Below are positions 1 through 24,266 of a DNA stretch of 51,014 nt, piece after piece. This DNA is from Patescibacteria group bacterium (GTDB lineage: Bacteria; Patescibacteriota; Patescibacteriia; 2-12-FULL-57-11), in assembly GCA_004299275.1 (NCBI GenBank), contig SCSU01000052.1:1-51014 (forward strand). Direction: 5' to 3'. The stretch's first letter is position 1. Every line of letters begins with the position of its first letter. The notes below the pieces were generated by a model. The model did not search any database, was not told the origin of the DNA, and worked only from the letters and a program-made list of their open reading frames with translations. The position numbers and the translations under genes were made by a program.

Positions 1-469
1 CTTCCGATCTAATTACTACGGCGCCGGCCAACAGCTCTGGAAGATTCTGCCGCGCGCCGCAATCACCGTTCATCGAGGAGAAAAACTGCCGCTGCACGGC
101 GGCGGCGCGGCGCTCAAAACCTGGATTCACGTCCGCGACGCGGCGCGGGGGGTGATTGCCGCGCTCGAGCGCGGGAGAGTCGGCGAGGTTTATCATTTCT
201 CCGACGCCGCCAATGTGCTCACCGTCGCCGAGGCGGTGCGGCGAATCAGCGCGGCGATGGGAGTCAATTTTGAAGAGGTGATCGAGATGGCGCCGGTCCG
301 GCTTGGCCAGGACCCGCGTTATCTCCTGGATTACAGCAAAGCCGGGCGCGAGCTCGGCTGGCGGCCGGAAGTAAAGTTTGACGACGGCCTTCGCGAATTA
401 ATCAGCTGGGTTCTGACCAATTGGACGACGATTAGCGGTTTGCCCCGAGAATATGTCCACCGGGCCTGA
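1..469 (+). CDS. NAD-dependent epimerase/dehydratase (dTDP-glucose 4,6-dehydratase-like), 5' truncated by window edge
   Basis: Frame is open from base 2 (FRSNYYGAGQQLWKILP...KTWIHVRDAARG...GEVYH...RLGQDPRYLLDYSKAGRELGWRP), which is the typical extended-SDR C-terminal half. Confidence 0.85.
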   Translation, partial: FRSNYYGAGQQLWKILPRAAITVHRGEKLPLHGGGAALKTWIHVRDAARGVIAALERGRVGEVYHFSDAANVLTVAEAVRRISAAMGVNFEEVIEMAPVRLGQDPRYLLDYSKAGRELGWRPEVKFDDGLRELISWVLTNWTTISGLPREYVHRA

Positions 470-1673
470 AATTGAGAAAAAATATTTTTCTGTTAGCCGC
501 GAGCGCGACCGCTGTATCGTCTGCGGCCGGGCCGGACTAACCGAAGTTTTGCCGCTTCCGGCCTTGCCGCTTACCGGGATTTTCTTACAGCCGGGCGAAG
601 ACCGCTCGCGCTATCCGAATTTTGACCAGGCCCTGCTTTTTTGCGACGAGTGCGGCCATGGGCAGCTCCGTTTTTTTATTGACCCCAAAGTCGTTTACGG
701 CAGTATTTACACGCACCGTTCCTCACGAAGCCCGATTGCCGCCGGCGGCAACGATTTTTTCGCTGCCTTTGTCGGCCAAGTCGCCGCCGGCCGCAATTTC
801 AACCGCGTGGTGGATATCGGCTGCAACGATTTATATCTGCTTGGCAAGTTTCGGGGCCGCGCGGCGGAACTCATTGGCATTGACCCCATCTGGCGGGGGA
901 AAGCGCCGCCGGAATCCGGCGGGGCGCGGGTCATCGGCAAATTCGCGGAGGAGGTTGATTTTGAGCGCGAGGCCGGCGGCGCCGACCTTGTTCTTTCGGC
1001 CCACACTTTTGAACACGTGGATTCCCCGCTCGCCCCGCTCGCGCGCGCCCTCGCCGCCGCCGCGCCGGGCGCGCTTTTCGTGATTGAAGTGCCGAGTTTG
1101 GACACCTTGCTCGCTAATCTGCGTTTTGACCAAGTGTTCCATCAGCACGTCAACTACTTCAGCCTAGCGTCGATGAGCCGGCTCATTCGCGAGCTCGGCG
1201 GCGAGTACCTCGCGCATACTTATAATTACGGCTACTGGGGCGGCACGATGCTCGTCGCTTTCCGTAAACCCGCCGGCCGTCCCGCTCCGCCGCCGGAGTT
1301 CAACCGGCCCGCTCGCGAGAGTATTGCCGAAAGTTACGCGCGTTTCCGCGAGCAGATGGACCTCGTCCGCCGCGCGCTTCTCGCGGCTCGCCACGAGACA
1401 ATCTACGGTTACGGCGCTGCGCAGATGCTGCCGACCTTGGCTTATCATCTTCGGAGCGACCTCTCATTTTTGGCCGGTCTGCTCGATGACGACCCGGCTC
1501 GGGGCGGTTTGACGTATCCGACGCTGCCGATTATCATACGAAATCCGGCGGACGATTTTTCGCTCGCTAATTCAACGGCGCTTTTGACTGCGCTGGACTC
1601 GGCGCGGCCGATACTTCGGCGCTTAATTGCTCTCGGCGCGCGCCGCATCATCCTGCCATTACCTATTCTGTAA
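453..1673 (+). CDS. NDP-sugar C-methyltransferase-like SAM-dependent methyltransferase
   Basis: N-terminal CxxC...CxxC Zn motif (CIVCG, CDECGHGQL), VDIGCND SAM motif, HTFEHV, FDQVFHQHVNYFS, GYGAA C-terminal domain. Confidence 0.85.
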   Translation: MSTGPEIEKKYFSVSRERDRCIVCGRAGLTEVLPLPALPLTGIFLQPGEDRSRYPNFDQALLFCDECGHGQLRFFIDPKVVYGSIYTHRSSRSPIAAGGNDFFAAFVGQVAAGRNFNRVVDIGCNDLYLLGKFRGRAAELIGIDPIWRGKAPPESGGARVIGKFAEEVDFEREAGGADLVLSAHTFEHVDSPLAPLARALAAAAPGALFVIEVPSLDTLLANLRFDQVFHQHVNYFSLASMSRLIRELGGEYLAHTYNYGYWGGTMLVAFRKPAGRPAPPPEFNRPARESIAESYARFREQMDLVRRALLAARHETIYGYGAAQMLPTLAYHLRSDLSFLAGLLDDDPARGGLTYPTLPIIIRNPADDFSLANSTALLTALDSARPILRRLIALGARRIILPLPIL

Positions 1674-1675
1674 CT

Positions 1676-2452
1676 ATGGACTTGGGACTAAAGGGCAAAC
1701 GCGCGCTAGTGACCGGCGCTGGCCGCGGCATCGGCCGCGCCATCGCGCTCGCGCTCTCCCGCGAGGGCGCCAAGGTCGCGGTTTTCTCGCGGAATGACGC
1801 GGACGTGAGCTCGCTCCTCGCGGCGATGGGCGGCGCGGCGGCCGGCCACTATGGGGGACCATTTGACCTGATGGCGCCGGGTGCGCCGGAGCGTTTGGCC
1901 GAGACGCTAAACGCCCGTTTCGGACTGCCGGATATCTTGGTGCATAACGTCGGTGGGACGCTCGAGGTGACCGACCCGTTTTGTTCGCTCGTGGATTGGC
2001 GCCGGGTCTTTCGATTCAATTTTGAGATCGCGGTTGAACTGGATCAGATTTTTATTCCGGCGATGCGCGAACGGCGATGGGGGAGAGTGGTGCATGTCGG
2101 CTCGACTTCTTCGATGGAGAATAACGGCCCGATTACCTACTGCGCCGCCAAGGCGGCGCTCGTCGCTTATTCGCGCAGTATGGGGCGCGTGCTGGCCAAA
2201 GACGGAGTAGTGATGTCTGCGGTGCTCCCAGGCGCCGTTTTTACCGAAGGCGGTTACTGGGACGAGGCCCTGCGCGAACGGCCGGAGCACGTGCAAAAAT
2301 ATCTCGCCGACCGGTGCCCCTTGGGCCGCTTCGGCCGGCCGGAGGACATCGCGGCGATGGTCGTTTTCCTTTGTTCTGAACTCGCGGAGTTCTGCCAGGG
2401 TTCAATCGTCCCGGTTGACGGCGGGCAGAGCCGGCATTTTTTTGCCCAATAA
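1676..2452 (+). CDS. SDR family NAD(P)-dependent oxidoreductase
   Basis: TGAGRGIG, YCAAK, PG, VDGG motifs; 258 aa. Confidence 0.9.
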   Translation: MDLGLKGKRALVTGAGRGIGRAIALALSREGAKVAVFSRNDADVSSLLAAMGGAAAGHYGGPFDLMAPGAPERLAETLNARFGLPDILVHNVGGTLEVTDPFCSLVDWRRVFRFNFEIAVELDQIFIPAMRERRWGRVVHVGSTSSMENNGPITYCAAKAALVAYSRSMGRVLAKDGVVMSAVLPGAVFTEGGYWDEALRERPEHVQKYLADRCPLGRFGRPEDIAAMVVFLCSELAEFCQGSIVPVDGGQSRHFFAQ

Positions 2453-2468
2453 AATTATTACAACCTCT

Positions 2469-3146
2469 ATGGAACGCGCTTCCAAAGAAATCCATAACCA
2501 AAAGCAGTTTGACCTCTACGCCGAGCTCGGTCCGGTTCGTTTGGGACCCTACACTTCCTATATCTGGCGCACCGACCCAAAGCATCTGCAATTTTTACTT
2601 TCCCGTTACCTGTTCGTGAGCAAGATGCTCGCGGGCAAATCCGAAGCGCTCGAGGTCGGTTGCGGCGACGCCTTGGGGACGCCGATAGTGCTCCAAACGG
2701 TAAAAAAAGTTTACGCCCTGGATTTCGAGCCGATCGTGATTGACGCCGCGCGGCATTGCATTGACCCAACGCTTAATTGCGAATTCGTGGTTCAGGACAT
2801 CACCGAAGCGCCGTTCGCCAAAAAGGTGGATGCTGTTTACTCGCTCGATTGTATTGAACACATACCGCCGGAAAAGAGCGAACGTTACTTTGCCAATGTC
2901 GCCGCTTCAATAAACAACGATGGCATCGCGATTATCGGCACGCCGAATATTACGGCTAATGCCTACGCCTCGGAGGGCAGCCGCACCTGTCATGTCAACC
3001 TCCAGAGCCACGAGACGTTGCGAGCCGCTCTCGCGGCGCATTTCAAGAATGTCTTTATCTATTCCATGAACGATGGTCTGGTGCATACCGGTTTTTACCC
3101 CATGGCCCATTACTTGCTCGGGGTCGGCGTCGGCAAAAAAATATGA
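2469..3146 (+). CDS. Class I SAM-dependent methyltransferase
   Basis: LEVGCGD, DAVYSLDCIEHI, IIGTPN; ATG at 2469 chosen because it follows the upstream stop. Confidence 0.85.
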   Translation: MERASKEIHNQKQFDLYAELGPVRLGPYTSYIWRTDPKHLQFLLSRYLFVSKMLAGKSEALEVGCGDALGTPIVLQTVKKVYALDFEPIVIDAARHCIDPTLNCEFVVQDITEAPFAKKVDAVYSLDCIEHIPPEKSERYFANVAASINNDGIAIIGTPNITANAYASEGSRTCHVNLQSHETLRAALAAHFKNVFIYSMNDGLVHTGFYPMAHYLLGVGVGKKI

Positions 3147-4942
3147 TGAATGTTTCCGAATACATCGCGGACTTTTTGGTGCGGCAGGGCATCGGACACG
3201 TCTTTGTCGTGACCGGCGGCGCCGTGGCCTGCCTGATTGATTCGGTCGCCAAGGACCGGCGGCTCGCTTACGTTTGCACTCAGCACGAGCAGGCGGCGGC
3301 TTTTGCCGTGGACGGCTATACGCGAGTGACCGGCAAGATGGGGGCGGCGATTGTGACCACCGGCCCGGGAGTCACCAACCTCGCGACCGGTGTCGCCAAT
3401 CTTTATTATGATTCGTTGCCGTCTATTTTTATCGCCGGTCAGGTTTCTACTTTTCGTCTGGCCGAGAACGCGCCCGGCGTCCGCCAGCTGGGTTTCCAGG
3501 AGGCGCCACATGTCGAATTGATGAGACCGATTACCAAGTACGCGGTTTTGGTGGCGGATCCCTCTCACATCCGTTACGAATTGGAAAAAGCGCTGTACCT
3601 GGCGGTGACTGGCAGGCCGGGTCCGGTTTTTCTGGACATTCCCGACGACGTCCAGCGCATGGAAATTGATCCCGAACGCATGGCGGGGTTCGAGCCGCCT
3701 CCAGCGCCGACCAAAGATTTATCCGGACTTTCTTTACAGGTTGATGAGGCGCTCCGACTGCTTGCGGCGGCGCGGCGGCCGATTGTCGTCTTGGGCGCGG
3801 CGGTCAAAATCGCGCGGCAACAGGCGCAGGCGATTGAATTTGTGGAAAAGTTTGGTTTGCCGACCGCCCTCACCTGGGCGGTTTGGGAACTTCTCCCGAC
3901 CGACCATCCGCTCCAGACTGGCGGCTTCGGCGTGAGTTCCACGCGCCGCGGCAACTTCGCCATTCAGAACGCCGATTTCGTGCTGTCAGTCGGCTCGCGG
4001 CTTGACACTCACGCGACCGGCACGCCCATCGCGACCTTCGCCCGCGAGGCGAAAAAAGTCATTGTTGAATTGGACGCCGCCGAGCTCAATAAATTCATGA
4101 GCGGCGGGATGCGCGTGGATGTGCCGATACTCTCCGACGTCCGTGATTTTTTTGTCGCTCTCCGCGACAAATTTACGGCCGTACAAGTCGGCGACATTAC
4201 GGAATGGCGGGCAAAAATCGCCGAGTGGCGCGAGCGTTACCCGGTTTGCCTGCCGGAGTTCCGCGAGAGCCGCGGCAGCGTCAACCCCTACGTTTTCCTG
4301 GAGATGCTCTCCGAGGAAACCGCGCCGGATGATATTATTATTCCCGATTGCGGCGGTAATCTAATCCAGACTTATCAAGGGTATCGCTTGCGGCGAGGCC
4401 AGCGGATATTTTCCGCCTTCAATAATTCCCCCATGGGCTACTCGCTGTCCGGCTCCATCGGCGCATGTTTCGCGAACGGCGGACGCCGGGTTATCTGCAT
4501 CACCGGTGACGGCGGCCTGCAGGTGAATATCCAAGAGCTCGGCACCGTGGCCCATCACCATCTGCCGATTAAGATTTTTCTTTTTAACAATCACGGTTAC
4601 GGGATTATCCAGCAGACTCAGGACGACTGGTACGGTTCGCGCTACATCGCCTCGCGGCCGCAGACGGGCCTGGCTGACCCCGATTATGTGAAGATCGCCG
4701 AGGCCTACGGCATCCGCGCCTGGACCGCGCGCTCGCATGACGACCTGCGCCAGATTATCCGGCTCACCCTGGCCCATCCGGGCCCGGCCCTCTGCAACAT
4801 GGAGTTCAGTCAGGACCAGCGCCTCCACCCGATGCTTAAAGCCGGCCGGCCGATTGAGGACCCCAATCCGCTTTTGCCGCGGGAACAATTTTTCCGCGAG
4901 ATGCTGGTCAAGCCGCTTGACAGCTCGCTCTGCGAAGACTAA
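3143..4942 (+). CDS. Thiamine diphosphate-dependent enzyme (acetolactate synthase-like / YerE-like carboligase)
   Basis: HEQAAAFA, TTGPGVTN, GRPGPVFLDIP, GDGG...NN ThDP-binding motif; sugar-cluster context. Confidence 0.9.
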   Translation: MMNVSEYIADFLVRQGIGHVFVVTGGAVACLIDSVAKDRRLAYVCTQHEQAAAFAVDGYTRVTGKMGAAIVTTGPGVTNLATGVANLYYDSLPSIFIAGQVSTFRLAENAPGVRQLGFQEAPHVELMRPITKYAVLVADPSHIRYELEKALYLAVTGRPGPVFLDIPDDVQRMEIDPERMAGFEPPPAPTKDLSGLSLQVDEALRLLAAARRPIVVLGAAVKIARQQAQAIEFVEKFGLPTALTWAVWELLPTDHPLQTGGFGVSSTRRGNFAIQNADFVLSVGSRLDTHATGTPIATFAREAKKVIVELDAAELNKFMSGGMRVDVPILSDVRDFFVALRDKFTAVQVGDITEWRAKIAEWRERYPVCLPEFRESRGSVNPYVFLEMLSEETAPDDIIIPDCGGNLIQTYQGYRLRRGQRIFSAFNNSPMGYSLSGSIGACFANGGRRVICITGDGGLQVNIQELGTVAHHHLPIKIFLFNNHGYGIIQQTQDDWYGSRYIASRPQTGLADPDYVKIAEAYGIRAWTARSHDDLRQIIRLTLAHPGPALCNMEFSQDQRLHPMLKAGRPIEDPNPLLPREQFFREMLVKPLDSSLCED

Positions 4943-4955
4943 GAAGACACTCATT

Positions 4956-6518
4956 ATGGCTCAAACTGACAACGCGCGAAAAAAGACAACGCTCCTCACC
5001 TTGCGGGCGATGAAGCAGCGGGGCGAGAAAGCGGTTTTTATCACCGCCTACGACTACCCCTTCGGCCTTTTTGCCGACCGCGCTGGCGTGGACATGATTT
5101 TGGTCGGCGATTCGCTGGCCATGACCACGCTCGGCCACGCGACCACTCTGCCGGTTACCATGGATGAGATGATCTCCCATGCCGCGGCGGTGCGCCGCGC
5201 GGTCAAGTATGCCTTCCTCATCGGCGACATGCCGTTTATGTCTTATCAGCCCTCGGACCGCGACGCCGTGCTCTCGGCCGGACGTTTTATCGCCGAGGCG
5301 GGCTGTGACGCGGTTAAGTGCGAGGGCGGTCGTCGAGTCGCGGCACGGGTCAAGGCCATGGTTGACGCCGGTATCGTCGTCATGGGCCACCTGGGGATGA
5401 CACCGCAGAATATGGCTCAAATCGGCGGCTACCGCGTACAGGGTAAAACCAAGGCGAGTTATGACGCGCTGCTTGATGACGCGCTGGCTCTGGAAGAAGC
5501 CGGAGCGTCATTTCTCTTGCTCGAAGCCATGCCCGCCGAAACCGCCGCTCTGATTCGCGATCGGCTTAAAATCCCGGTTTACGGCATCGGTGCCGGTGAC
5601 CAGGTGGACGGGCAGCTCGTGATTATCCATGACATTTTAGGGATGTTTGAACAGTTTAAGCCTAAGTTTGTGAAGCGTTTTGTGGAGGCGGGCGCGTTGA
5701 TCGAGGAAGGAATTACCCGCTACGCCTCCGAGGTGCGTTCCGGCAAGTTCCCGACGCGCGAAAATTTTTATGAAATTGACGGAGACGAGCTGCAAAAGAT
5801 TTGTTCCGCGCCGCGCGGCGAGGCGGCGCCGGTCTCGGCCGTCCAATTTTTACTTGGAAAAGAAATTAATCTCCTGGATCGTTATCCGCATTCTGCGCGC
5901 AACATTGCCGCGCGCGCCGATTGGCTGGCCGCTAAACCGGAAAACCGCGCCGTTGCCAAACAGTACGGCCGGGAATACTTCGACGGCACGCGCGACCAGG
6001 GCTACGGCGGTTACCATTACGACGGCCGTTGGATTCCGGTGGTGGAGCGTTTTATCGAGCACTATGGGCTCAGATCGGCGAGTTCCGTGCTGGATGTCGG
6101 TTCGGCCAAGGGGTTTTTCCTCCACGACCTCAGAATGCTTCGCCCGGGCATTTCGGTCGCCGGCCTTGATGTCTCGGAGTATGCTATTCAAAACGCCATG
6201 TGGGACGTGCGGCAATTTTTACAGGCGGGCAACGCCGTTTCCCTGCCGTATCCCGACAAATCTTTTGATTTGGTGGTGGCGATAAATACGCTGCATAATT
6301 TGAAACGCGAGGATTGCAAGCGCGCGCTCCGGGAGATTATGCGCGTCTCCCGCGGGCCGGCCTACATCCAAGTTGATTCGTATTTAAATCCCCGGCAAAA
6401 GGAAAATCTGGAGCGCTGGCAGCTCACGGCGGAGCTCATCTATTCGCCGGAAGAATGGCACCAACTTTTCCGCGAGGCGGGATATACCGGCGATTATTAT
6501 TGGACAATCATTGAGTGA
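4956..6518 (+). CDS. panB: Fusion: PanB-family ketopantoate hydroxymethyltransferase + class I SAM methyltransferase
   Basis: N-half ITAYDY, LVGDSLAM, DMPFMSY, VKCEGG, GHLGMTPQ, GIGAG, DGQLVIIHDILG; C-half FDGTRDQGYGGY, VLDVGSAKG, LPYPDKSFDLV, YTGDYYW; single ORF with no stop between the halves. Confidence 0.88.
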   Translation: MAQTDNARKKTTLLTLRAMKQRGEKAVFITAYDYPFGLFADRAGVDMILVGDSLAMTTLGHATTLPVTMDEMISHAAAVRRAVKYAFLIGDMPFMSYQPSDRDAVLSAGRFIAEAGCDAVKCEGGRRVAARVKAMVDAGIVVMGHLGMTPQNMAQIGGYRVQGKTKASYDALLDDALALEEAGASFLLLEAMPAETAALIRDRLKIPVYGIGAGDQVDGQLVIIHDILGMFEQFKPKFVKRFVEAGALIEEGITRYASEVRSGKFPTRENFYEIDGDELQKICSAPRGEAAPVSAVQFLLGKEINLLDRYPHSARNIAARADWLAAKPENRAVAKQYGREYFDGTRDQGYGGYHYDGRWIPVVERFIEHYGLRSASSVLDVGSAKGFFLHDLRMLRPGISVAGLDVSEYAIQNAMWDVRQFLQAGNAVSLPYPDKSFDLVVAINTLHNLKREDCKRALREIMRVSRGPAYIQVDSYLNPRQKENLERWQLTAELIYSPEEWHQLFREAGYTGDYYWTIIE

Positions 6519-7549
6519 ACATGCGTGCCGCAGTACTTATCGCTCCGGGCAAGCCGTTAGAAATTTGGGACGTCGTTTTGCCGGAACCGGGTCTTGGCCA
6601 AGTCCGGGTGCGTTTGCGCCGGAGCGGCATCTGCGGCAGTCAATTGCTCGAAGTTAGCGGTAGCCGGGGGGAGGACGCCTATCTGCCGCATCTCCTCGGT
6701 CACGAGGGTTCGGGAACAGTGATCTCCGTCGGCGCCGGCGTCACTAAGGTGCGTCCCGGTGACCGGGTTATTATTTCTTGGATGACAGGAGTTGGTCTGG
6801 ACGCCGGCGGCCTTCGGCTTACTGCCGGAACCCGAACGGTCAACGCCGGGCCGGTCGCCACGCTGGCGGAGGAGGCAATTGTGCCGGAGAACCGGCTAGT
6901 TCCTATCCCCGACGGTGTTCCGCTCCCCGACGCCGCGCTGGTCGGCTGCGCGCTGGCCACTGGCTGCGGCATCGTGCGCAATACTCTGCAATTACGCGCG
7001 GGACAATCAATCGCGGTATTTGGCGCCGGCGGCATCGGAATCAATGTTGTCCAGATGGCACGTTACTCGGGTGCCGGCCCGATAATTGCCATAGACGTTG
7101 ACCAAAAAAAGTTGGCGTGGGCTAAGGAATTCGGCGCCACCGAGGTGATTGACGCGCGCCGCGAAGATGTTCTCGGCGCGATTTACGCGTTCTCCGGCGG
7201 CGGCGTTGACGCGGCGGTCGCGACTGCCGGTTCCCGCTCTTCAATGGAGCTCGCTCTCGCCGCGGTCAAGCGCGGCGGCACGGCGGTAATTGCCGGGAAC
7301 CTCGCGGCCGGCGAACGCGTGAGCATTGACCCGTTTGATTTGATCAAAGGAAAGCGGCTTATCGGCACCTGGGGTGGAGAGAATAATCCGGACAGCGACT
7401 TTCCTTTTTATCTGGATCTCGTGAGGCAAGGAGCGCTGCGGCTTAAAGAACTTGCCAGTCACAGCTTTCCTTTGGAAGCGGTCAACGAGGCGCTGGCTGC
7501 GCTTCGCGCCGGCAACGCGCTGCGCGCTGTTGTTGATCTCGCGCCATAA
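6515..7549 (+). CDS. Zinc-binding (MDR) alcohol dehydrogenase
   Basis: GICGS, GHEGSG, GDRV, VGCA, FGAGGIG; alternative ATG at 6521. Confidence 0.88.
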   Translation: MNMRAAVLIAPGKPLEIWDVVLPEPGLGQVRVRLRRSGICGSQLLEVSGSRGEDAYLPHLLGHEGSGTVISVGAGVTKVRPGDRVIISWMTGVGLDAGGLRLTAGTRTVNAGPVATLAEEAIVPENRLVPIPDGVPLPDAALVGCALATGCGIVRNTLQLRAGQSIAVFGAGGIGINVVQMARYSGAGPIIAIDVDQKKLAWAKEFGATEVIDARREDVLGAIYAFSGGGVDAAVATAGSRSSMELALAAVKRGGTAVIAGNLAAGERVSIDPFDLIKGKRLIGTWGGENNPDSDFPFYLDLVRQGALRLKELASHSFPLEAVNEALAALRAGNALRAVVDLAP

Positions 7550-7551
7550 AT

Positions 7552-8268
7552 ATGCCCGAGCTCACCATTGTCGTCCCTTGTTACAACGAAGTAACGGTCA
7601 TTGCCAAGACGCTTTCAAACATTATGGACGCTTTGGCCGGACGCAGTCTGGAGGCCGAAGTTTTGGTTGTTGACGATTGCTCAACGGACAACACCGCCGG
7701 TGTGGTCGCGGCGTATCAGAACGCGCACCCGGACGCAATGGTTAAATTGCATCGGAATCCCGTGAACCGCGGCTCCGGTTACAGTTACGCCGCCGGCGCC
7801 GCGTTCGGAACCGGCCGGTGGTGCATATTGGTCCCGGGTGATAACGACCTGCCGGCAGATGCGCTTAGCGCCATTTTTAATCGTCTCGGTTCGGCGGAGA
7901 TTCTTCTGCCCTACCCGCGACTGGAGGATTTCCGGGAGCGGCCGCTGCTCAGGCGCGTAGTTTCGCGCGCTTATAACGCGCTGATTTGTTTTGCCGGCGG
8001 TATCAGGGTGCGGTACGTGCACAGCCCGCCGGTTTATCCGCGGGAGTTTATTGTTTCTTCAAAAATTTCGCCATCTGGTTTTGGATATTTTGCCGAATTG
8101 CTCTGTCTAGCCGTCAGGACTGGACTAACGGTTGCCGAGTTCCCGGTACCGGCCCTTTACGGCCAGCAAGAGGGCACCAGCGCGTTTCGTCTCGCCAACC
8201 TGCGTTCGGTTGCCGCGAGCATCGCCAGGATTTTTATGCGGCGCGTGCTTCCGCGCTCTCACGGTTGA
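7552..8268 (+). CDS. Glycosyltransferase family 2
   Basis: IVVPCYNE, VVDDCSTDNT, NRGSG, GDND. Confidence 0.88.
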   Translation: MPELTIVVPCYNEVTVIAKTLSNIMDALAGRSLEAEVLVVDDCSTDNTAGVVAAYQNAHPDAMVKLHRNPVNRGSGYSYAAGAAFGTGRWCILVPGDNDLPADALSAIFNRLGSAEILLPYPRLEDFRERPLLRRVVSRAYNALICFAGGIRVRYVHSPPVYPREFIVSSKISPSGFGYFAELLCLAVRTGLTVAEFPVPALYGQQEGTSAFRLANLRSVAASIARIFMRRVLPRSHG

Positions 8269-8326: not shown

Positions 8327-9409
8327 ATGCTCGGGTGGGTAGATCACGCGGACTATCGCAAATGGCAGTCGCGTCAGGCGAAGGGAGACCTGCCGCCTGA
8401 TTTTTTATCGGGCCTGCGAGTTTTGGTTGTCGGCGCCGGTTCGATCGGCAAGCGGCATATCGGCAACCTCACGGCGCTTGGCATCGGCAACGTCGCCGTC
8501 GTTGAGCCGCGCGAAGACCGGCGGCGGGAGGCGCAAGAACGTTTTGGCGCGCTGCCGTTTTTTGCCACGGAGGAGCTGGCTTACGCGGCCGGCAGTTATG
8601 ACGCGGTCGTGGTGGCCAATCCGCCGGCGTTGCACGCCGCGAGCGGGGAACGCGCCTTGCTCGCTGGCGCGCACGTGCTCATGGAAAAAAGCATCACCGA
8701 CCGCGTGGAAACGGCGGAGCATTTTCTCCGCCTGGCTCGGCGCGCCGGCAAAGTCGTCGCGGTAAATTATGTCTACCGCTATGCCGACACGCTCAGAACT
8801 GTCGCGGAGCTCCTCTCCCGCGGCGAGATCGGCAAGATTTATTCGGCACAGATTGTTTTTTCGGAATGTTTGCTGGACTGGCATCCGGGCGAGCATCCGC
8901 GCGCCTGGTATGCCGGCCACAAGGACCTGGGCGGCGGCGAACTTTCTGACGAAAATCACGCCGTGGATATCGCGCGGTGGCTTTTTGGCGAGGTGCGCGA
9001 GGTAATGGCTTATGTCGGCCGGTTGGGTGAATTGACGCTGGACGCCGATGATTTCGCCGAAGTGACACTGACGCACCAAAACGGCATCATCTCGCAAATC
9101 CATCTGGACGCGCTCGGCCGTGAGCCGCGCAAAGAGATGCGGATTATCGGGGAGGCGGGGAGCATTTTTTGGGATTCCTATATGGGCGGGAACCGCGTGG
9201 AGCTTTTCCGCGCCGCGGACCGCCGGCGGGAAATTTTCCCCGGCGCGATGGCGCGTAACGACTATTTTGTCGAGCAGCTCCGCGATTTTTTACTCTGCGT
9301 TGCCCGCGGCGGCCGGCCGCTCGCGGGCGGCGACGAGGCGCTCGCGGCGTTAAAAATTTGCGCGGCGGCGGAGCGCTCCTCGCGCGAGGGCGTTAGGGCC
9401 CGACTTTAA
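8327..9409 (+). CDS. Gfo/Idh/MocA family oxidoreductase
   Basis: VVGAGSIGKRH, HVLMEKS, GGGELSDENHAVD. Confidence 0.88.
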   Translation: MLGWVDHADYRKWQSRQAKGDLPPDFLSGLRVLVVGAGSIGKRHIGNLTALGIGNVAVVEPREDRRREAQERFGALPFFATEELAYAAGSYDAVVVANPPALHAASGERALLAGAHVLMEKSITDRVETAEHFLRLARRAGKVVAVNYVYRYADTLRTVAELLSRGEIGKIYSAQIVFSECLLDWHPGEHPRAWYAGHKDLGGGELSDENHAVDIARWLFGEVREVMAYVGRLGELTLDADDFAEVTLTHQNGIISQIHLDALGREPRKEMRIIGEAGSIFWDSYMGGNRVELFRAADRRREIFPGAMARNDYFVEQLRDFLLCVARGGRPLAGGDEALAALKICAAAERSSREGVRARL

Positions 9410-9418
9410 TTGTTACTG

Positions 9419-9447
9419 TTGACACTCGCGGTGTCAGCCGGTATCTT
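9419..9447 (+). promoter_or_regulatory. Putative sigma70 promoter (TTGACA-N17-TATCTT) overlapped by inverted repeat TGACAC-N5-GTGTCA
   Basis: Consensus match with 17-bp spacer, 14 bp before ATG 9462; dyad at 9420-9436. Confidence 0.55.
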
Positions 9448-9461
9448 TCGGGCACTTGCCT

Positions 9462-11342
9462 ATGGCTATATTGGAAATTTTTGACCGGCGGATCGGCGCC
9501 GGCGAGCCCGTGCTCGTCATGGCCGAGATCGGCGTCAATCATCAGGGCAAGCTTGATTTGGCGCATCGCTTGATTGACGCTGCCGCCGACGCCGGAGTCG
9601 ACGTCGTCAAATTTCAAAAACGGAGCTTGTCCACGCTGTATCAGGAAAAATTGCTGGAAAATCCCAATCTCGGGGAGCAGGCTTTCCAGTATCTGCTGCC
9701 GATTTTGCGCGAGGCCGAGTTTGGCGAAAATGAATTTCGCGAATTGATGTCCCATGCCCGGAGCCGCGGGGTGCGGTTTTTATGCACGCCGTTTGACGAG
9801 GAGAGCGTTGACTTTCTAGAACGGCTGGGCGTGGTCGCCTACAAAGTGGCTTCGGCCGATCTGACCAACAATCTGCTGCTCCAGAAAATCGCTCGGGCAG
9901 GGAAGCCGATGCTCGTCTCCACGGCCATGGCGACGAGCGAAGAGATCCAGGGCGCGGTTGATTTTTTGCGTTCTTTGGGCGCGCGTTTCGCCCTGCTCCA
10001 CTGTGTGGCGGCCTATCCCGCGCCGCCCGAGGATTTGAATTTGCGCTTTATCACCGAACTGGAGCGGCGTTTCCCCGAGGTGCCCATCGGTTATTCTGGC
10101 CACGAACGCGGCATCGCCTGCACTTTGGCCGCGGTGTCGCTGGGCGCGGCGGTGGTCGAACGGCACATTACGCTCGACCGCTCCATGGAGGGGCCGGACC
10201 ACGCCGCCAGCTTGGAGCCGGACGATTTCCGCGCCATGGTCGCGATGATCCGCGAGATTGACCGGGCGTTGGGCGTGCCGCAGAAGATTTTGAGCCACAT
10301 GGAGCAGGCCAATCGCAAGGTCTTGGCTAAATCGCTGGTAGCGGCGCAAGACATCGCGGCTGGCACCGTGATTACCCGCGAGCTAGTTGCGGCTAAGAGT
10401 CCGGCCAAGGGTCTGCCGCCCTACCGTCTGCCGGAGCTACTCGGCCGTCGGACAACTCGCGCGATACCGCGCGATTCCTGCCTCTCACTCGAGGATTTCG
10501 GCGCGCCAACAGCGAGCTTTGCGCGGCCAGATTACCGGACGCCGTGGGCGCTCAAAACCCGTTTTTCCGAAATTGATTTTGCCGAACAGTTTGAGCCGCC
10601 GATGTTTGAATTCCACCTGTCGGACAAAGACATTGACGAACCATTCGTTCCCAAAAAACATTACCGCCAGCGCTTATTCGCGCACGCGCCGGATTACATG
10701 GGCCGGCGGGTCAAGGATCTGGCATCGCTCGATGATGACCACTGGGAGCGCTCCATCGCGTTTTGCCAGCAGGTGATTGACAAAGTGCATAGTTTAGCGC
10801 CATTTTTTGAGGGGCCGCCGGCTTTAGTGATCCACGTCGGCGGGGCCTCAATGGACCCGGTTTGTAAAAATCGGGAACGCCTGCTCGCGCGCTCGCTTGC
10901 GGCCTTCCGCCGGCTTCGGACGGACGGGATTATTTTGCTTCCGGAAAATTTGCCGCCCCACGGCTGGTATTTTTCCGGCCAGTGGTTTAACCACATTTTC
11001 GCCGAGGCCGAGGAGGTCGTTAACTTTGCCCGTGAATTGGGGCTGCGCATCTGTTTTGACACGGCCCACGCTCGCCTTGCCTGCAACGTTCTAAAAAAAG
11101 ATTACCGCCGGTTCGTGGAAACCGTCGCGCCGCTGACCGATTACGTGCAGGTATCCGACGCGGCGGGGTTCTCCCGCGAGGCGCTCCAGATCGGCGAGGG
11201 CGAAATTGATTTTGCCGAAACTTTTGATATCCTCAGACGCCACCCCGGCTGGCGCTGGTGCCCGGAGATTTGGGAAGGGCACCTCAATGGTTACCGCGGA
11301 TTTTTAACCGCGCTCGAACGGCTCAAGCCGTTTATCCCCTAA
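9462..11342 (+). CDS. neuB: N-acetylneuraminate synthase (NeuB) family protein with SAF domain and C-terminal xylose-isomerase-like TIM barrel
   Basis: AEIGVNHQG, VKFQKR, YKVASAD, HCVAAYP, GYSGHE, ERHITLDR, GPDHAASLEP; C-terminal PENLPP, ICFDTAH, SDA, PEIWEGH. Confidence 0.9.
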   Translation: MAILEIFDRRIGAGEPVLVMAEIGVNHQGKLDLAHRLIDAAADAGVDVVKFQKRSLSTLYQEKLLENPNLGEQAFQYLLPILREAEFGENEFRELMSHARSRGVRFLCTPFDEESVDFLERLGVVAYKVASADLTNNLLLQKIARAGKPMLVSTAMATSEEIQGAVDFLRSLGARFALLHCVAAYPAPPEDLNLRFITELERRFPEVPIGYSGHERGIACTLAAVSLGAAVVERHITLDRSMEGPDHAASLEPDDFRAMVAMIREIDRALGVPQKILSHMEQANRKVLAKSLVAAQDIAAGTVITRELVAAKSPAKGLPPYRLPELLGRRTTRAIPRDSCLSLEDFGAPTASFARPDYRTPWALKTRFSEIDFAEQFEPPMFEFHLSDKDIDEPFVPKKHYRQRLFAHAPDYMGRRVKDLASLDDDHWERSIAFCQQVIDKVHSLAPFFEGPPALVIHVGGASMDPVCKNRERLLARSLAAFRRLRTDGIILLPENLPPHGWYFSGQWFNHIFAEAEEVVNFARELGLRICFDTAHARLACNVLKKDYRRFVETVAPLTDYVQVSDAAGFSREALQIGEGEIDFAETFDILRRHPGWRWCPEIWEGHLNGYRGFLTALERLKPFIP

Positions 11343-13786: not shown

Positions 13787-15595
13787 ATGCCTCCGAAAGT
13801 TTTAATTATTGGGTTAGGGTCAATCGGCCGCCGGCATGTCCAGAACCTTCGCGCTTTGGGCGTGAATGATATTTTCGCTTTTCGCAGCCGCGGCGCGGCT
13901 GCCCGCCCGCTTGAGCCCGGGGAGCAGGTTCTGACCGTGCCGACTCTCGAGGCCGGACTGGCCCGGAAACCGGACATTGTTTTTGTCACCAACCCGACCG
14001 CTTTTCACCTCGCGACCGCCCGCGCGGCGGTCAGAGCCGGCGCCCATGTTTTTATCGAAAAGCCGATCAGCCATACGCCAAACGGCGTGGAGGAATTTTT
14101 AAGCGAGGCGGCCGCGGCCGGCCGTCATGTTTTTGTCGGCTTCAACTTTCGGTTCCATCCGACTATCCGTATTGCCCGCGAGCGGCTCCTTGCCGGCGCG
14201 ATCGGCCGGCCGGTGTCGGCGCGTTTTGCCATCGGCGAATATCTGCCCGACTGGCATCCTTGGGAGGACTATCGCACAAGCTACAGCGCGCGAGCTGAGC
14301 TCGGCGGCGGCGTGCTACTCACTCAAATCCACGACATTGATTTACTTAATTGGTTTTTTGGATTGCCTCGAGAGGTCACGGCTTCGTTGGGCACCTGCGG
14401 GGAGCTAGGCGTTGATGTTGAAGACGTCGCCGCTTTGATTTGCAATTATGAGCGACTGATTGCCGAAGTGCATCTGGATTATTTGGAAAAACCGGCGCGG
14501 CGGTGCTTCACCATCATCGGTACGGGAGGAAAAATGGAGTGGACGCAACAAGACGGCACGCTGCGTATCTGGCGCCACGGCGCAAGTGAGCCGGAAGAGC
14601 ACCGGGCGCCCCTGGGTTTTGAACGCAACGACATGTTTTTGGCGGAAGCGGCCCACGTGTTGGCGGTGCTCCGGGGAGAAGAAAGCTCCCTTATCTCCGG
14701 TGACGCCGGACGCGACGCGCTTAAAATCGCGGCGGCGGCGAAACGCGCTTCCGCCGAGCGCCGCATCTGTCCGCTTGTCGCGGGCGAAAGGGAGCATAAC
14801 CCCTTTGACCTTACTGGGCGCGTGGCTATCGTGACTGGCGCGACCGGACTATTAGGGCGAGAATATGCTGACGAACTCTCGCGCGCCGGCGCGACCGTCG
14901 TCGCCACAGATCTGAGTCAGGGGCGCTGTGTGGAGCTCGCCGCTTCGCTGTCGGCGGCAACCGGCGGCAAAGTCATCGGGCTCGCCGCCGACATCACTAA
15001 CAGCGAAGAGGTAGACCGGCTGGTCGCCGAAACGGAGAGGCGCTTCGGCCGGATTGATATTTTGGTCAATAACGCCGCGATGAACCCCGTCCCCGGTTTG
15101 GCGATTTTTGAAAAATCTTTCGCGCCTTTTGAGGAATATCCGCGCGAACTTTGGGAACGGGAGCTCGCGGTAAACGTTACTGGCCCCTTTTTGCTCTGCC
15201 AGCGCGTCGGCGCGCTCATGGCGCGGCAGGGGAGGGGTTCGATTATCAACATCTCTTCCACCTACGGTAATGTCGCGCCGGACCATCGCATATACGGTCC
15301 CGGCAAATACAAATCCGTCGGCTATGCCGTAACCAAATCCGCGGTGCTTAATTTGACGCGTTATCTTGCTGCTTACTGGGGGCCGAAAGGGGTCCGGGTG
15401 AATACGCTGACCCCGGGCGGCGTTGGTGCCGGACAAGACCCGGACTTCCGGCGCCAATATGCCGACCGGACCATGCTCGGGCGGATGGCCGAGAAGAACG
15501 AATACCGCGGCGCGATTCTCTACCTCGCTTCGGATGCCTCGAGTTACATGACCGGCGCGAATCTTATCGTTGACGGCGGCTGGACCGCGTGGTAA
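13787..15595 (+). CDS. Fusion: Gfo/Idh/MocA oxidoreductase + PtmA-like SDR
   Basis: N-half GLGSIGRRH, IEKP, GGGVLLTQIHDID; C-half TGATGLLG, NNAA, ISSTYG, YAVTK, GANLIVDGGWTAW; single ORF. Confidence 0.88.
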   Translation: MPPKVLIIGLGSIGRRHVQNLRALGVNDIFAFRSRGAAARPLEPGEQVLTVPTLEAGLARKPDIVFVTNPTAFHLATARAAVRAGAHVFIEKPISHTPNGVEEFLSEAAAAGRHVFVGFNFRFHPTIRIARERLLAGAIGRPVSARFAIGEYLPDWHPWEDYRTSYSARAELGGGVLLTQIHDIDLLNWFFGLPREVTASLGTCGELGVDVEDVAALICNYERLIAEVHLDYLEKPARRCFTIIGTGGKMEWTQQDGTLRIWRHGASEPEEHRAPLGFERNDMFLAEAAHVLAVLRGEESSLISGDAGRDALKIAAAAKRASAERRICPLVAGEREHNPFDLTGRVAIVTGATGLLGREYADELSRAGATVVATDLSQGRCVELAASLSAATGGKVIGLAADITNSEEVDRLVAETERRFGRIDILVNNAAMNPVPGLAIFEKSFAPFEEYPRELWERELAVNVTGPFLLCQRVGALMARQGRGSIINISSTYGNVAPDHRIYGPGKYKSVGYAVTKSAVLNLTRYLAAYWGPKGVRVNTLTPGGVGAGQDPDFRRQYADRTMLGRMAEKNEYRGAILYLASDASSYMTGANLIVDGGWTAW

Positions 15596-15630: not shown

Positions 15631-16680
15631 ATGTCCAGACAAATGATGATCGGCTCGACGCCGGTCGGCGACGGTTTGCCCTGCTACCTCATCGCTGAAG
15701 CCGGGGTTAACCATAACGGCGACCCAGAGATCGCCCGTGCGCTTATAGACCGCGCGGCGGAGGTTAAAGCCAGCGCGGTCAAATTTCAAAAACGCACGAT
15801 CCCCGAGATTTTGGTGCGCTCGGCGCTGGAGAAACCTTATTTGAGTTCCACCGCGCTCGGGCCGACTTACGGCGAGCACCGGGAAAAACTGGAACTCTCC
15901 GAGGCGGTTTATTACAAACTTTTCGCGGCCGCGGCGGAGCGGGGCATCCACTTTTTGGCCAGCGGCTGGGACAAAACCGCGGTGGACTTTTTGGATAGCT
16001 TGGGCGTGCCGGCTTTTAAGGCCGCCTCAGCCGATGTTACCAACCTGCCGCTGCTTGAGCATATTGCCCGCAAGAGTAAGCCCGTCATTCTTTCCACCGG
16101 CATGAGTTCAGTAGAGGAGATTGACGAAGCCGTAGAGACCGTGCTCGCGCACAACGAAAATTTAATTCTTCTCCACTGCGTTTCCACTTACCCCTCGCCC
16201 AACGACAGCATCAACCTCCGGGTGATGGAGACGCTCCGCCGCCGCTACAACTTGCCCATCGGCTACTCCGGTCATGAGCGCGGTATCGCGATTTCCGTCG
16301 CGGCGCGCGCGCTCGGCGCGGTGGTGATAGAAAGGCATTTTACTCTGGACCGCGCGATGCGCGGACCTGACCACGCCGCCTCGCTCGAGGTCGCCGGCCT
16401 CCAAAAACTGGTCCAGTATGTCCGTACCGTGGAGCAGGCCTTGGGCTCGGCCGAAAAGGGCATCCAAAGCGATGAGGCGCCGATGAGGAACAAATTGGCC
16501 AAGAGCGTGGCCAGCGCCGCGCGGATTCCCGCCGGCGCCGTAATCAGCGCGGCGATGCTCACGATCAAGGGTCCCGGCGACGGCCTGAAGCCCAAATATC
16601 TCCGCGCGCTTATCGGCAAAATCGCGCAGCAGGACATCGAGGCCGATACGCTGATTCCGCCGGAGGCGCTCCATTGGTAG
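15631..16680 (+). CDS. neuB: N-acetylneuraminate synthase (NeuB) family protein with SAF domain
   Basis: IAEAGVNHNG, VKFQKR, LSTGMS, HCVSTYP, GYSGHE, ERHFTLDR, GPDHAASL, KGPGDGL. Confidence 0.92.
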   Translation: MSRQMMIGSTPVGDGLPCYLIAEAGVNHNGDPEIARALIDRAAEVKASAVKFQKRTIPEILVRSALEKPYLSSTALGPTYGEHREKLELSEAVYYKLFAAAAERGIHFLASGWDKTAVDFLDSLGVPAFKAASADVTNLPLLEHIARKSKPVILSTGMSSVEEIDEAVETVLAHNENLILLHCVSTYPSPNDSINLRVMETLRRRYNLPIGYSGHERGIAISVAARALGAVVIERHFTLDRAMRGPDHAASLEVAGLQKLVQYVRTVEQALGSAEKGIQSDEAPMRNKLAKSVASAARIPAGAVISAAMLTIKGPGDGLKPKYLRALIGKIAQQDIEADTLIPPEALHW

Positions 16681-17645: not shown

Positions 17646-19022
17646 ATGACTTCGCGAACCATCTTTATCACCATCTCGCGCGGCGGCACCGCGCGAAATA
17701 TTTTACAGACGGATGCTTTTCGCCTTCTCCGCGAGAGCGGCGCTCGTTTGGTCATTTTGAGCCCGGCTTGGCAGGACGAGCGTTTTCGCCGGACTTTCGG
17801 CTATCCGGGCGTGGAGTTCGCGCCTCTTTATGAGCCGCCCTGGAGTTTTTGGGACTACCTTTTTGTCGGTTTGCACAAAGCGCTGGTTTACAACGCCAGC
17901 ACCGAGATGCGCGATCGTTACGGGATTTATTCGCCGGACGAGGCCAATGTTCTCCGGTATTGGGCGAAGCGCCTCGTGTTCCGGCCCCTGCGGAACATCG
18001 GCGCGCTCAAAGAGTGGGCGCGCGCGCTGGACGCGGCGGTGATCCGCGACCGGCACTACGGTGAGCTCTTTAGCCGGTACCGTCCGGCCGCCGTTTTTTC
18101 CACCAGCGTCATCGAGGACATGGATGTTGCCGTGCAAAAACAAGCGCGTGCCCGCGGGGTGCCGATTATCGCCATGCCCAAGTCCTGGGACAATCTCTCC
18201 AAAATCAGCTGCCGCGTAAAACCAGACCGCCTGCTGGTCTGGGGGCCGTACTCGGAAGAAGAAGCGGCGCGATTCCAGAACATCCCCTCCGCCGAGGTGG
18301 AGATTTGCGGCATTCCGCAGTTTGACCTTTACTCGCGGCCGGAAATTTTTGTCAGCCGCGAGGAGTTTTGCCGCGCCTTTGCTCTCGACCCGCAAAAAAA
18401 AATCATCCTCTACGCCTCCGAGGGCAAGGTGGCCAAGCATGACCCGGAAATGGTCCTAATGCTGGCCCGGGCCGCCGCCGCGCGCACTCTCGGCGCGCCG
18501 GCGCAGATTTTAATCCGGCCGCATTTTATCTACCCGGGTGATAAGGAAAAATTCGCGAGCGTCGCCTCCTTGCCGGGCGTTTTTATTGATAATTTTTATC
18601 AGCCCTCGGCGTGCTTTCGCGACCGCTGGGATTACAGCGTGGAGCAGATGAAACACTTGGCCAACCTCCTCCACCATGCCGACGTTTTGGTCACTTCCAA
18701 TTCAACCCTGACCCTCGATGCCTCGGCAATGGACAAGCCGACGGTCAACGTCGCTTTCGATGGCCGCGAGAAAAAACCCTTTACCGCCTCCATCGCCAAG
18801 TGGTACACGACCGAGTACTATCGTCAAGTGGTCGCGACCGGCGCGCCGTGGCTCGTCGGCTCCGAGGAGGAACTTTTGGCCGCGGTCCGCGCTCTCCTCG
18901 CTGACCCTTCGATTCGCCGCGCCGAGCGGCGGCGGCTGGCCGACTATTTTTGCGGTCCGCGCGACGGCCGGGCCGGGGAGCGTGTCGGACAAGCGGTTAT
19001 TGAGTTTGTTAATGGCGTATGA
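17646..19022 (+). CDS. GT-B fold protein, CDP-glycerol glycerophosphotransferase-like (candidate nonulosonate transferase)
   Basis: SWDNLSK, GIPQFDLY, IRPH, STLTLDASAMDKPTVN, DGRAGERV; paralog of the next gene. Confidence 0.65.
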   Translation: MTSRTIFITISRGGTARNILQTDAFRLLRESGARLVILSPAWQDERFRRTFGYPGVEFAPLYEPPWSFWDYLFVGLHKALVYNASTEMRDRYGIYSPDEANVLRYWAKRLVFRPLRNIGALKEWARALDAAVIRDRHYGELFSRYRPAAVFSTSVIEDMDVAVQKQARARGVPIIAMPKSWDNLSKISCRVKPDRLLVWGPYSEEEAARFQNIPSAEVEICGIPQFDLYSRPEIFVSREEFCRAFALDPQKKIILYASEGKVAKHDPEMVLMLARAAAARTLGAPAQILIRPHFIYPGDKEKFASVASLPGVFIDNFYQPSACFRDRWDYSVEQMKHLANLLHHADVLVTSNSTLTLDASAMDKPTVNVAFDGREKKPFTASIAKWYTTEYYRQVVATGAPWLVGSEEELLAAVRALLADPSIRRAERRRLADYFCGPRDGRAGERVGQAVIEFVNGV

Positions 19023-23691: not shown

Positions 23692-23693
23692 AC

Positions 23694-24266
23694 ATGACAG
23701 CATTCAAAATCGGAATTGATTTCGACGGCGTCATTGCCGATACCAGTTCGCTTAAACAGGAACAGGCGCGGTTGTTATATGGTGTCAGTATTCCGCCGCA
23801 TCAGTTTAAGGAGCAGCTGGTTACCGGTATGGGAATCCTGACACAACCGCAGTATCGCGCGCTGATGCGCCGAGTCTGCGGCACGCGCGAGGTCGGTCTC
23901 CGCATGGCGCCTCTCCCCGGAGCCGTCCCGAGCTTGCGGCGCCTCTTGGACGGTGGCCACCGCTGCACCGTAATCACTTCGCGCGAAGCGGAGGAGCTTG
24001 CGATTGCCAGCGAGTGGTGCGCGGCGCGGGGACTCGCGCCGGAGTTCGTGTCCGTGGGTTACGCCAAGCCCAAGGTCGAGGTGGCTCGGGGATTGGATGT
24101 CTATATCGATGATGATCTGCAGAAACTCCTGCCGCTTGTCGGCAACACGCCGAATCTGTTTCTTTTTCATCAGAGTTACAACGCGCACGAGGCCGAGCCG
24201 CCCGAGATACGCCGGGTGAGCTCTTGGGCGGAATTAGACGGACATCTTACGCGCCTCGGCGCCTGA
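23694..24266 (+). CDS. HAD-superfamily phosphatase (5'(3')-deoxyribonucleotidase-like)
   Basis: IGIDFDGVIADT, VITSR, K, YIDDD, YN, RVSSW. Confidence 0.8.
   Translation: MTAFKIGIDFDGVIADTSSLKQEQARLLYGVSIPPHQFKEQLVTGMGILTQPQYRALMRRVCGTREVGLRMAPLPGAVPSLRRLLDGGHRCTVITSREAEELAIASEWCAARGLAPEFVSVGYAKPKVEVARGLDVYIDDDLQKLLPLVGNTPNLFLFHQSYNAHEAEPPEIRRVSSWAELDGHLTRLGA

Follow-up and report, generated by a model that had tools for sequence, protein, structure and literature searches.

What does a ketopantoate hydroxymethyltransferase (KPHMT, PanB) contribute to a glycan gene cluster in a 1.0-Mb genome? This question is raised by a 51,014-nucleotide stretch of DNA from a Patescibacteria group bacterium (assembly GCA_004299275.1, contig SCSU01000052.1, positions 1 to 51,014), in the following referred to at its full length as the window. 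It forms the start of contig C67 of a host genome with 73 contigs and an estimated completeness of 100 %, and its DNA is also present in groundwater metagenome runs; size and habitat suggest a bacterium of the candidate-phyla-radiation type. An open reading frame (ORF) of the window encodes PanB fused to a class I S-adenosylmethionine (SAM) methyltransferase and directly follows a gene for a thiamine diphosphate (ThDP)-dependent enzyme. Based on the predicted proteins, their homologues and their neighbourhoods, we propose with moderate confidence that PanB replaces an aldolase here, i.e., that it would form a 4-hydroxy-2-oxo acid, which the ThDP enzyme would couple to a nucleoside diphosphate (NDP)-4-keto sugar, probably a heptose.

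The fusion ORF (4956-6518, forward strand) starts with ATG at 4956, 14 bases past the stop of the ThDP gene, encodes 520 amino acids and ends with a stop codon at 6516-6518. Residues 1 to ~272 (4956-5810) represent a full-length PanB (PF02548, Pantoate_transf; E 1.2e-104, 349.8 bits, profile positions 1-258 of 259), which passes both curated NCBIfam cut-offs for this enzyme (TIGR00222, 310.6 bits with a cut-off of 207.55; NF001452, 345.3 bits with a cut-off of 272). The remainder (5811-6518) consists of a short variable linker and, at residues ~296-520, a class I SAM methyltransferase matching the profiles Methyltransf_11/25/31/23/12. Both the open frame and the two domains are as given in the initial annotation, which had described a complete PanB fused without a stop to a class I methyltransferase. 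A contig of run X1, possibly the sample in which the DNA originated, covers 3143-7549 with one base difference and no insertion or deletion (indel); in another sample of that study, contigs are free of indels over 5566-5757 and 5805-6482, bases 5758-5804 being uncovered.

The fusion also recurs. From a collection of 5.8 billion proteins, 8000 candidates were scored, yielding 7378 matches, the best 120 of which were examined. Four other protein clusters among these (P0003-P0006, 502-523 amino acids, 59-75 % identical) share the two-domain build, which argues against an assembly slip, and the other 115 are PanB alone (286-342 amino acids). The fusion is rare: the fused form was found neither in the best 80 loci of a scan of species-representative genomes nor in the best 80 of a metagenome scan, and none of the best 150 of 17,264 matches from a library of 1.84 billion representatives covers both halves. 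Both the length (~15-30 residues) and the sequence of the linker vary between the five fused proteins, and stand-alone homologues of the methyltransferase (217-228 amino acids, 50-52 % identical) begin exactly at its end. The fusion most likely represents two neighbouring genes that were joined, from which substrate channelling need not follow.

According to whole-genome family searches, the fusion is the sole Pantoate_transf match in the host genome. No match was obtained anywhere in the genome for (i) pantoate ligase (panC; Pantoate_ligase), ketopantoate reductase (panE; ApbA) and aspartate decarboxylase (panD; Asp_decarbox), or (ii) dihydroxy-acid dehydratase (ilvD; ILVD_EDD_N), ketol-acid reductoisomerase (ilvC; KARI_C) and a class IV branched-chain aminotransferase (ilvE-type; Aminotran_4); applied to 14 control genomes, the same searches each matched 8 to 14. 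The absence of panC, panD, panE, ilvC and ilvD previously noted for the window therefore extends to the whole genome, and the context of pantothenate synthesis (panC, panE, panD and supply of ketoisovalerate) is missing. In a sample of the host phylum, the genomes of which are all ~0.7-2 Mb in size, a PanB-type match was present in only 6 of 400 other genomes (35-45 % identity). The gene for serine hydroxymethyltransferase (SHMT), which makes 5,10-methylene-tetrahydrofolate, is present in the host genome.

Phylogenetic analysis sets the PanB half apart from housekeeping PanB. In a FastTree phylogeny of 287 PanB rows (rooted on Escherichia coli, the root not being inferred), one clade of 126 rows (support 95) unites all five fusions, six loci with an adjacent ThDP gene and 115 unfused top database matches, whereas all 47 panC-adjacent rows and all 113 other locus rows fall outside it; linkage to ThDP genes refers here to clade members with visible context, the 115 database proteins coming without it. 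IQ-TREE (LG+C20, short search, 71 rows including 12 added viral ones) recovered the clade with 36 rows (Shimodaira–Hasegawa-like approximate likelihood ratio test 95), comprising 18 of 18 ThDP-adjacent rows, the five fusions and 13 rows without known context. The comparison with housekeeping PanB that had been called for thus places the fusion's PanB half in a distinct ThDP-linked clade in both trees, and the recruitment of PanB from pantothenate synthesis into a glycan cluster, as initially suggested, is supported. Since P0006 (fused) and P0007 (unfused) form a pair in the 71-row tree (support 95), either fusion or fission occurred more than once or a separate methyltransferase gene follows that of P0007.

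The ThDP-linked clade retains every one of the 42 positions with at least 95 % identity in panC-adjacent PanBs, including E. coli D45, D84, K112, E114, H136 and E181, which we take to be active-site residues (metal and carboxylate ligands). Nine positions are fixed differently in the clade (33, 50, 108, 122, 179, 182, 200, 212 and 214 in E. coli numbering). As the E. coli KPHMT variants I202A, I212A and V214G were reported to alter the accepted substrate range (PMC7610986), positions 212 and 214 bear on specificity. The sister clade comprises 43 PanB loci, none of them with panC nearby. Five sampled loci (L003, L020, L037 and L099, as well as L014 from outside the sister clade) are of non-glycan context; in L003 (6605-12291), PanB is part of a 2-oxoacid dehydrogenase operon (E1 alpha, E1 beta, E2, PanB, E3), and one and the same 421-amino-acid protein without a Pfam match is encoded behind PanB in L037 and L099.

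The association of PanB with a ThDP gene is not confined to the window. Altogether 160 loci, i.e., the best 80 of 597 relatives from species-representative genomes and the best 80 metagenome loci, were searched with the window proteins and E. coli PanC. A ThDP gene lies directly beside PanB in six of them (L083, L084, L085, L093, L097 and L100), all from metagenomes and including the four PanBs most similar to that of the window (58-63 % identical). None of the six has panC near PanB, while 45 of the other loci have a PanC match there. Pfam scans revealed sugar-nucleotide clusters at all six: (i) L084 has the order ThDP-PanB-methyltransferase-SDR (short-chain dehydrogenase/reductase) together with a SIS domain gene and RmlA/B/D-like genes, (ii) L100 has ThDP-PanB beside an SDR and a C-methyltransferase gene, accompanied by a homologue of the fused methyltransferase, a Zn-dependent alcohol dehydrogenase (Zn-ADH), E1 alpha/beta, SIS and HAD genes, (iii) L083 and L085 have a gene for a B12-binding radical SAM enzyme (8392-9891 and 3990-5522, respectively) directly upstream of PanB and then ThDP, along with RmlC-like genes and, in L083, a DegT aminotransferase gene, and (iv) in L097 the PanB-ThDP pair lies within a NeuB/UDP-GlcNAc 2-epimerase/CMP-transferase cluster.

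L083 and L085 are probably of phage origin, since L085 and a viral locus (L214) have identical PanBs and a PhoH gene is present in L083. When an alignment of members of the clade was used to search viral contigs, 146 PanB relatives were obtained, of which the best 80 and one more were analysed as loci. These viral PanBs are 51-64 % identical to that of the window, above any species-representative genome, where the best 80 of 597 relatives reach only 55 % and none is fused. A same-strand ThDP gene adjoins PanB in 80 of the 81 viral loci (57 upstream, 23 downstream); the remaining locus breaks off 341 bases upstream of PanB. In the phylum of locus L017 (labelled Chloroflexi), a PanB match was found in 220 of 401 genomes (best 55 %), and no ThDP gene was present within 1.5 kb at any of the 25 best loci. 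About 21 of these 220 genomes contain two or three PanB copies, typically one with 51-55 % and one with 47-49 % identity to the PanB of the window.

The ThDP enzyme of the window (3143-4942, forward strand; TPP_enzyme_N/M/C) has a canonical GDG motif and a three-domain build and is closer to the YerE-like lyase JanthE than to acetohydroxyacid synthases. Its best PDB relative is JanthE (8rph; E 2.7e-112, 379.5 bits, residues 3-587 vs 8-600), followed by chains with at most 271.8 bits, acetolactate synthases (ALS) scoring 271 bits or less; the second match, 5ahk, is presumably PpYerE. With the ALS large-subunit equivalog TIGR00118, the enzyme scores 385.9 bits, below the cut-off of 538.35. Genes for a nucleotide-sugar 4,6-dehydratase and for reductases are encoded alongside. 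The YerE-type assignment made initially thus stands, and a true acetolactate synthase (IlvB/IlvG/IlvI) was rejected on account of the TIGR00118 score and the absence of ilvC and ilvD. By homology, the enzyme would accept a ketone, i.e., an NDP-4-keto sugar.

A model for the joint function of the two enzymes is provided by acyl-branched sugars. In case of erwiniose, caryophyllose and gastriose, the gene next to that of the ThDP enzyme codes for an aldolase forming a gamma-hydroxy-2-oxo acid (PMC9306805), which a YerE-like enzyme transfers to a nucleotide 4-keto sugar prior to the action of a reductase (PMC9306805, PMC12247030). A putative Rhodopseudomonas cluster also has a SAM methyltransferase gene, and ErwE of erwiniose synthesis, which refuses pyruvate, works with 4-hydroxy-2-oxobutanoate, -pentanoate and -hexanoate; the aldol step was concluded to come first (PMC9306805). 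KPHMT of E. coli acts as a class II aldolase, converting 2-oxo acids and formaldehyde to 4-hydroxy-2-oxo acids (PMC7610986, PMC11331486). Since this is the compound class that ErwE uses, PanB may be regarded as the donor-making and the ThDP enzyme as the branching enzyme.

Accordingly arranged, the predicted route would comprise three steps. Firstly, PanB would hydroxymethylate C3 of a free 2-oxo acid at the expense of 5,10-methylene-tetrahydrofolate or formaldehyde, yielding a 4-hydroxy-2-oxo acid; pyruvate or 2-oxobutanoate is a likelier substrate than ketoisovalerate, for which no source is visible (no ilvC, ilvD or branched-chain aminotransferase). Secondly, the ThDP enzyme would decarboxylate this acid and add the acyl anion to the ring ketone of an NDP-4-keto-6-deoxy sugar, probably a heptose provided by the GmhA/GmhB-HldE-like proteins and the 4,6-dehydratase encoded just upstream. 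Thirdly, the SDR and/or the Zn-ADH may reduce the branch carbonyl in a YerF-like manner, the methyltransferases including the fused domain may methylate hydroxyls of the branch or ring, and a family 2 glycosyltransferase (GT2) would pass the sugar on. PanB acting first is the more economical order, since its invariant residues are kept, it scores as an ordinary PanB and ErwE refuses pyruvate. The opposite order of the initial annotation, in which PanB hydroxymethylates a keto acid or branch derived from the ThDP enzyme, is therefore probably to be reversed.

The genes around the fusion agree with such a route. A Pfam profile scan of 30 ORFs of window positions 2-32395 confirmed the fusion to be located between the ThDP gene and a Zn-ADH gene, downstream of genes for a C-methyltransferase, an SDR and another methyltransferase, as described before. 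All on the forward strand, these are (i) an NDP-sugar 4,6-dehydratase of which the contig end leaves the C-terminal half (2-469; GDP_Man_Dehyd/Epimerase, positions 179-314 of TIGR01181, dTDP-glucose 4,6-dehydratase), (ii) a sugar C-methyltransferase-like protein (453-1673; Zn-binding Methyltransf_13 and Methyltransf_23), the homologue of which in L100 (34 % over 337 amino acids) also has Methyltransf_14, (iii) a classical SDR (1676-2452; adh_short_C2, E 2.3e-41) as candidate reductase of a branch or ring ketone, with a 45 % identical homologue directly adjoining PanB in L100, (iv) the class I SAM methyltransferase MT2 (2415-3146; Methyltransf_25/11), homologues of which are encoded directly after PanB in L084 (40 % identical) and after the dehydratase in genome G309 (38 %), and, behind the ThDP and fusion genes, (v) the Zn-ADH (6515-7549; ADH_N and ADH_zinc_N) as candidate reductase of the acyl branch and (vi) the GT2 (7552-8268; Glycos_transf_2). 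No aldolase family was detected among the 30 ORFs or among 15 ORFs of contig C2 included in the same scan. The ThDP enzyme, an NAD(P)H reductase, a keto-sugar supply and the optional SAM methyltransferase of the scheme known from erwiniose are all present, while the slot beside the ThDP gene is occupied by PanB and not by an HpcH/BphI-type pyruvate aldolase.

Contig C2 provides indications of the acceptor sugar. The N-terminal half of the dehydratase (homologue residues 4-178) is encoded on its minus strand at C2:3-530, with the window containing residues 180-331; the reversed contig C2 thus precedes the window. Proceeding upstream from the dehydratase, all further members with coordinates also being on the minus strand, there are genes for E1 beta and E1 alpha (C2 527-2576), an epimerase, a SIS (GmhA-like) protein (3641-4321) and a 699-amino-acid triple fusion of HAD, cytidylyltransferase-like and PfkB domains (GmhB/HldE-like; 4481-6580), with DegT, RmlD-, RmlC-, RmlB- and RmlA-like genes still further upstream. 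By their predicted functions, these genes point to a nucleotide-heptose that would be dehydrated to a 4-keto sugar. As judged from homology, the cluster holds two different ThDP branching systems, i.e., the E1-type and the YerE-like one. The E1 alpha/beta type was described to install C2 branches from pyruvate only (PMC12247030). A pyruvate-using YerE-like enzyme next to it would be redundant, which fits a different, PanB-made donor.

Several observations weigh against PanB serving as donor-making enzyme for the ThDP enzyme. Homologues of the fused methyltransferase and of the Zn-ADH co-occur in small genomes of the same phylum without PanB: in G140, G193 and G309, the methyltransferase domain has a stand-alone homologue (50-52 %), followed by one of the Zn-ADH (43-45 %), so these two enzymes do not need a PanB product. 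The order in G140 (dehydratase-SDR-methyltransferase-ThDP-methyltransferase-ADH-GT2) equals that of the window minus PanB. In the tree of ThDP enzymes, moreover, those of the PanB-less genomes G140 and G135 nest in a clade of 13 rows (support 100), the other 11 of which are PanB-linked, indicating that such ThDP enzymes can work without PanB. Since loss of PanB is as possible there as its gain, the direction implied by an insertion of PanB into a resident cluster, which the G140 synteny had suggested, was withdrawn. A ThDP match with E 1e-60 or better occurs in 31 of the 401 phylum genomes (the host included); ten other genomes match at 36 % identity or more, none of them with a PanB match on the same contig. 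The changes at positions 179, 182, 212 and 214 are common to the sister clade from non-glycan contexts, leaving only T50, C108, R122 and Y200 as marks of the ThDP-linked clade. The substitutions alone thus do not show a new substrate, and the active-site changes were weakened as proof of a smaller one.

A competing reading differs in the order of events: the ThDP enzyme would first transfer an acetyl branch from pyruvate to the NDP-4-keto sugar, and PanB would then hydroxymethylate the sugar-bound methyl ketone, with methylation and reduction following. The adjacency of the PanB and ThDP genes fits either order, and chelation of the metal by the alpha-hydroxy ketone, as by a 2-oxo acid, is conceivable. 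However, the PanB half passes the curated panB cut-offs, keeps all 42 conserved positions and, being 43 % identical to E. coli PanB, has no insertion able to hold a nucleotide sugar, and the ThDP enzyme of erwiniose synthesis rejects pyruvate, the aldol step coming first (PMC9306805). We consider this order unlikely.

Unlikely to the same degree is a variant of the donor-first route in which the fused methyltransferase (or MT2) would C-methylate C3 of the 2-oxo acid before PanB acts, similar to the keto-acid C-methylase SgvM, such that pyruvate would be converted to a branched 4-hydroxy-2-oxo acid. It would agree with the lack of ilvC, ilvD and ilvE-type genes, with the B12-binding radical SAM enzymes (a family that includes C-methylases) encoded directly upstream of PanB-ThDP in L083 and L085, and with the presence of some methyltransferase beside PanB in L084, L100 and the window. 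On the other hand, PanB-less clusters contain homologues of this fused domain as stand-alone proteins, and neither methyltransferase of the window has a homologue in the 81 viral PanB-ThDP loci. PDB profile and fold searches, the latter with a predicted model (mean predicted local distance difference test 79), retrieved generic class I methyltransferases with template-modelling scores of ~0.5; nearest were generic small-molecule and sugar O-methyltransferases, with AtmM and RebM ranking 2-3 and SgvM only 49th.

Rather improbable is a third reading, according to which a pantoate-like hydroxy acid formed by PanB and then the SDR or Zn-ADH would O- or N-acylate a sugar, e.g., the nonulosonic acid predicted from downstream genes, the ThDP enzyme supplying or trimming the acid. 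Two NeuB genes, a CMP-transferase gene and genes for GFO/IDH/MocA oxidoreductases are indeed located downstream, and the L097 pair resides in a NeuB/NeuC/CMP-transferase cluster. Yet Pfam detected no ligase, acyltransferase or carrier protein within 453-8268, an ALS-type product could not reach ketoisovalerate in a genome devoid of ilvC and ilvD, the ThDP enzyme is nearest to a ketone-accepting lyase, and the operon opens with a 4,6-dehydratase as supplier of a ketone acceptor. A housekeeping PanB for pantothenate and coenzyme A synthesis, residing in the glycan cluster by chance, would account for the score above the panB equivalog cut-off but was rejected as highly improbable, since it is the sole PanB of a genome estimated to be 100 % complete from which the pan and ilv genes are absent, only 6 of 400 other phylum genomes have a PanB-type match (all at most 45 % identical) and its clade is without any panC-adjacent member. 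PanB and phosphoenolpyruvate (PEP) mutase belong to a common fold superfamily; a phosphonate module (PEP mutase, decarboxylase and ADH) was rejected in view of the full-length Pantoate_transf match and the three-domain ALS-like ThDP enzyme.

Beyond the GT2 gene, the window contains two genes of the NeuB (nonulosonic acid synthase) family (9456-11342 and 15631-16680), the first of which encodes 628 amino acids with a fused C-terminal xylose-isomerase-like TIM barrel (AP_endonuc_2). Between them are genes for a KdsC-like phosphatase and a PseF-like cytidylyltransferase; a 602-amino-acid GFO/IDH/MocA oxidoreductase fused to a full SDR domain is encoded at 13787-15595. These are followed by two adjacent TagF-like genes (CDP-glycerol glycerophosphotransferase family, 17646-20410, the second a weak match), genes for an NTP transferase and an NT5C-like nucleotidase (22933-24266), a UDP-glucose/GDP-mannose dehydrogenase ORF (26092-26892, 266 amino acids), a subtilase (Peptidase_S8) with FG-GAP repeats (30161-32395) and two adjacent sigma-70-like genes (41359-43900). 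The dehydrogenase may be truncated, since its match starts only at position 74 of the N-terminal profile and the C-terminal UDP-binding domain is missing. The subtilase and sigma-70-like genes are surrounded by genes for glycosyltransferases and PMT_2-type membrane transferases, which make up the remainder of the window. The 1-Mb genome devotes well over 5 % of its DNA to an elaborate surface glycan.

Going further than the donor-making role of PanB proposed here, one may tentatively speculate that the ThDP-linked PanBs form a new subfamily producing donors of the 4-hydroxy-2-oxobutanoate type from pyruvate or 2-oxobutanoate, that PanB and ThDP genes spread as a two-gene cassette via phages and uncultured microbes, and that the fused methyltransferase could methylate the free keto acid ahead of its transfer (O-methylation of the new hydroxyl or C3-methylation), giving rise to an undescribed methoxy- or methyl-acyl-branched heptose on the cell surface. 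If the donor-making role itself is correct, many annotations of 'panB' and 'acetolactate synthase' in phages and candidate phyla would denote a glycan gene pair, which would change metabolic reconstructions and the interpretation of viral auxiliary metabolic genes, and a folate- or formaldehyde-dependent route to the donor acid would join the known scheme of carbon-branched sugars. The literature search retrieved no paper linking PanB/KPHMT with YerE-type enzymes, both appearing together in one paper only, in separate sections; Krug et al. 2024, with more than 200 YerE-like clusters, was outside its coverage and may bear on this point.

Among known systems, housekeeping PanB/KPHMT (E. coli, 1m3u; Mycobacterium tuberculosis, 1oy0) shares fold, family and invariant residues with the PanB half of the window, which differs by belonging to a separate clade, by its C-terminal methyltransferase and by residing in a genome without a pantothenate pathway. 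JanthE of Janthinobacterium sp. HH01 (8rph) is similar to the ThDP enzyme over its full length but has a CDG motif in place of the canonical GDG. It is a YerE-like lyase coupling 2-oxo acids of various lengths to aldehydes and ketones and accepts 4-hydroxy-2-oxovalerate, its physiological substrates being stated as unknown (PMC12188165). YerE/YerF of Yersinia pseudotuberculosis (yersiniose A) likewise combine an ALS-related lyase of the ThDP/flavin type, adding an acyl anion to a nucleotide 4-keto sugar, with a subsequent reductase; unlike the ThDP enzyme as proposed here, YerE uses pyruvate for a C2 branch, requiring no donor-making enzyme, and the likeness is drawn through JanthE.

The initial annotation knew of no described pathway with such an architecture. 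A precedent is nevertheless provided by the 'unifying scheme' of Steitz et al. 2022 (PMC9306805), with PanB in the place of the aldolase. The clusters of this scheme (ErwI/ErwJ-ErwE-ErwF; MMAR_2331/2332; MygI/MyGE/MygF) share with the window the NDP-keto-sugar genes, a YerE-like ThDP enzyme and a reductase, and probably also a gamma-hydroxy-2-oxo acid donor made by a C-C bond-forming enzyme whose gene adjoins that of the ThDP enzyme. The window differs in having a methyltransferase-fused PanB of a separate clade instead of an HpcH/BphI-type aldolase, in its likely heptose acceptor as compared to CDP-3,6-dideoxy-4-keto-glucose, and in its host, a groundwater bacterium with a 1-Mb genome.

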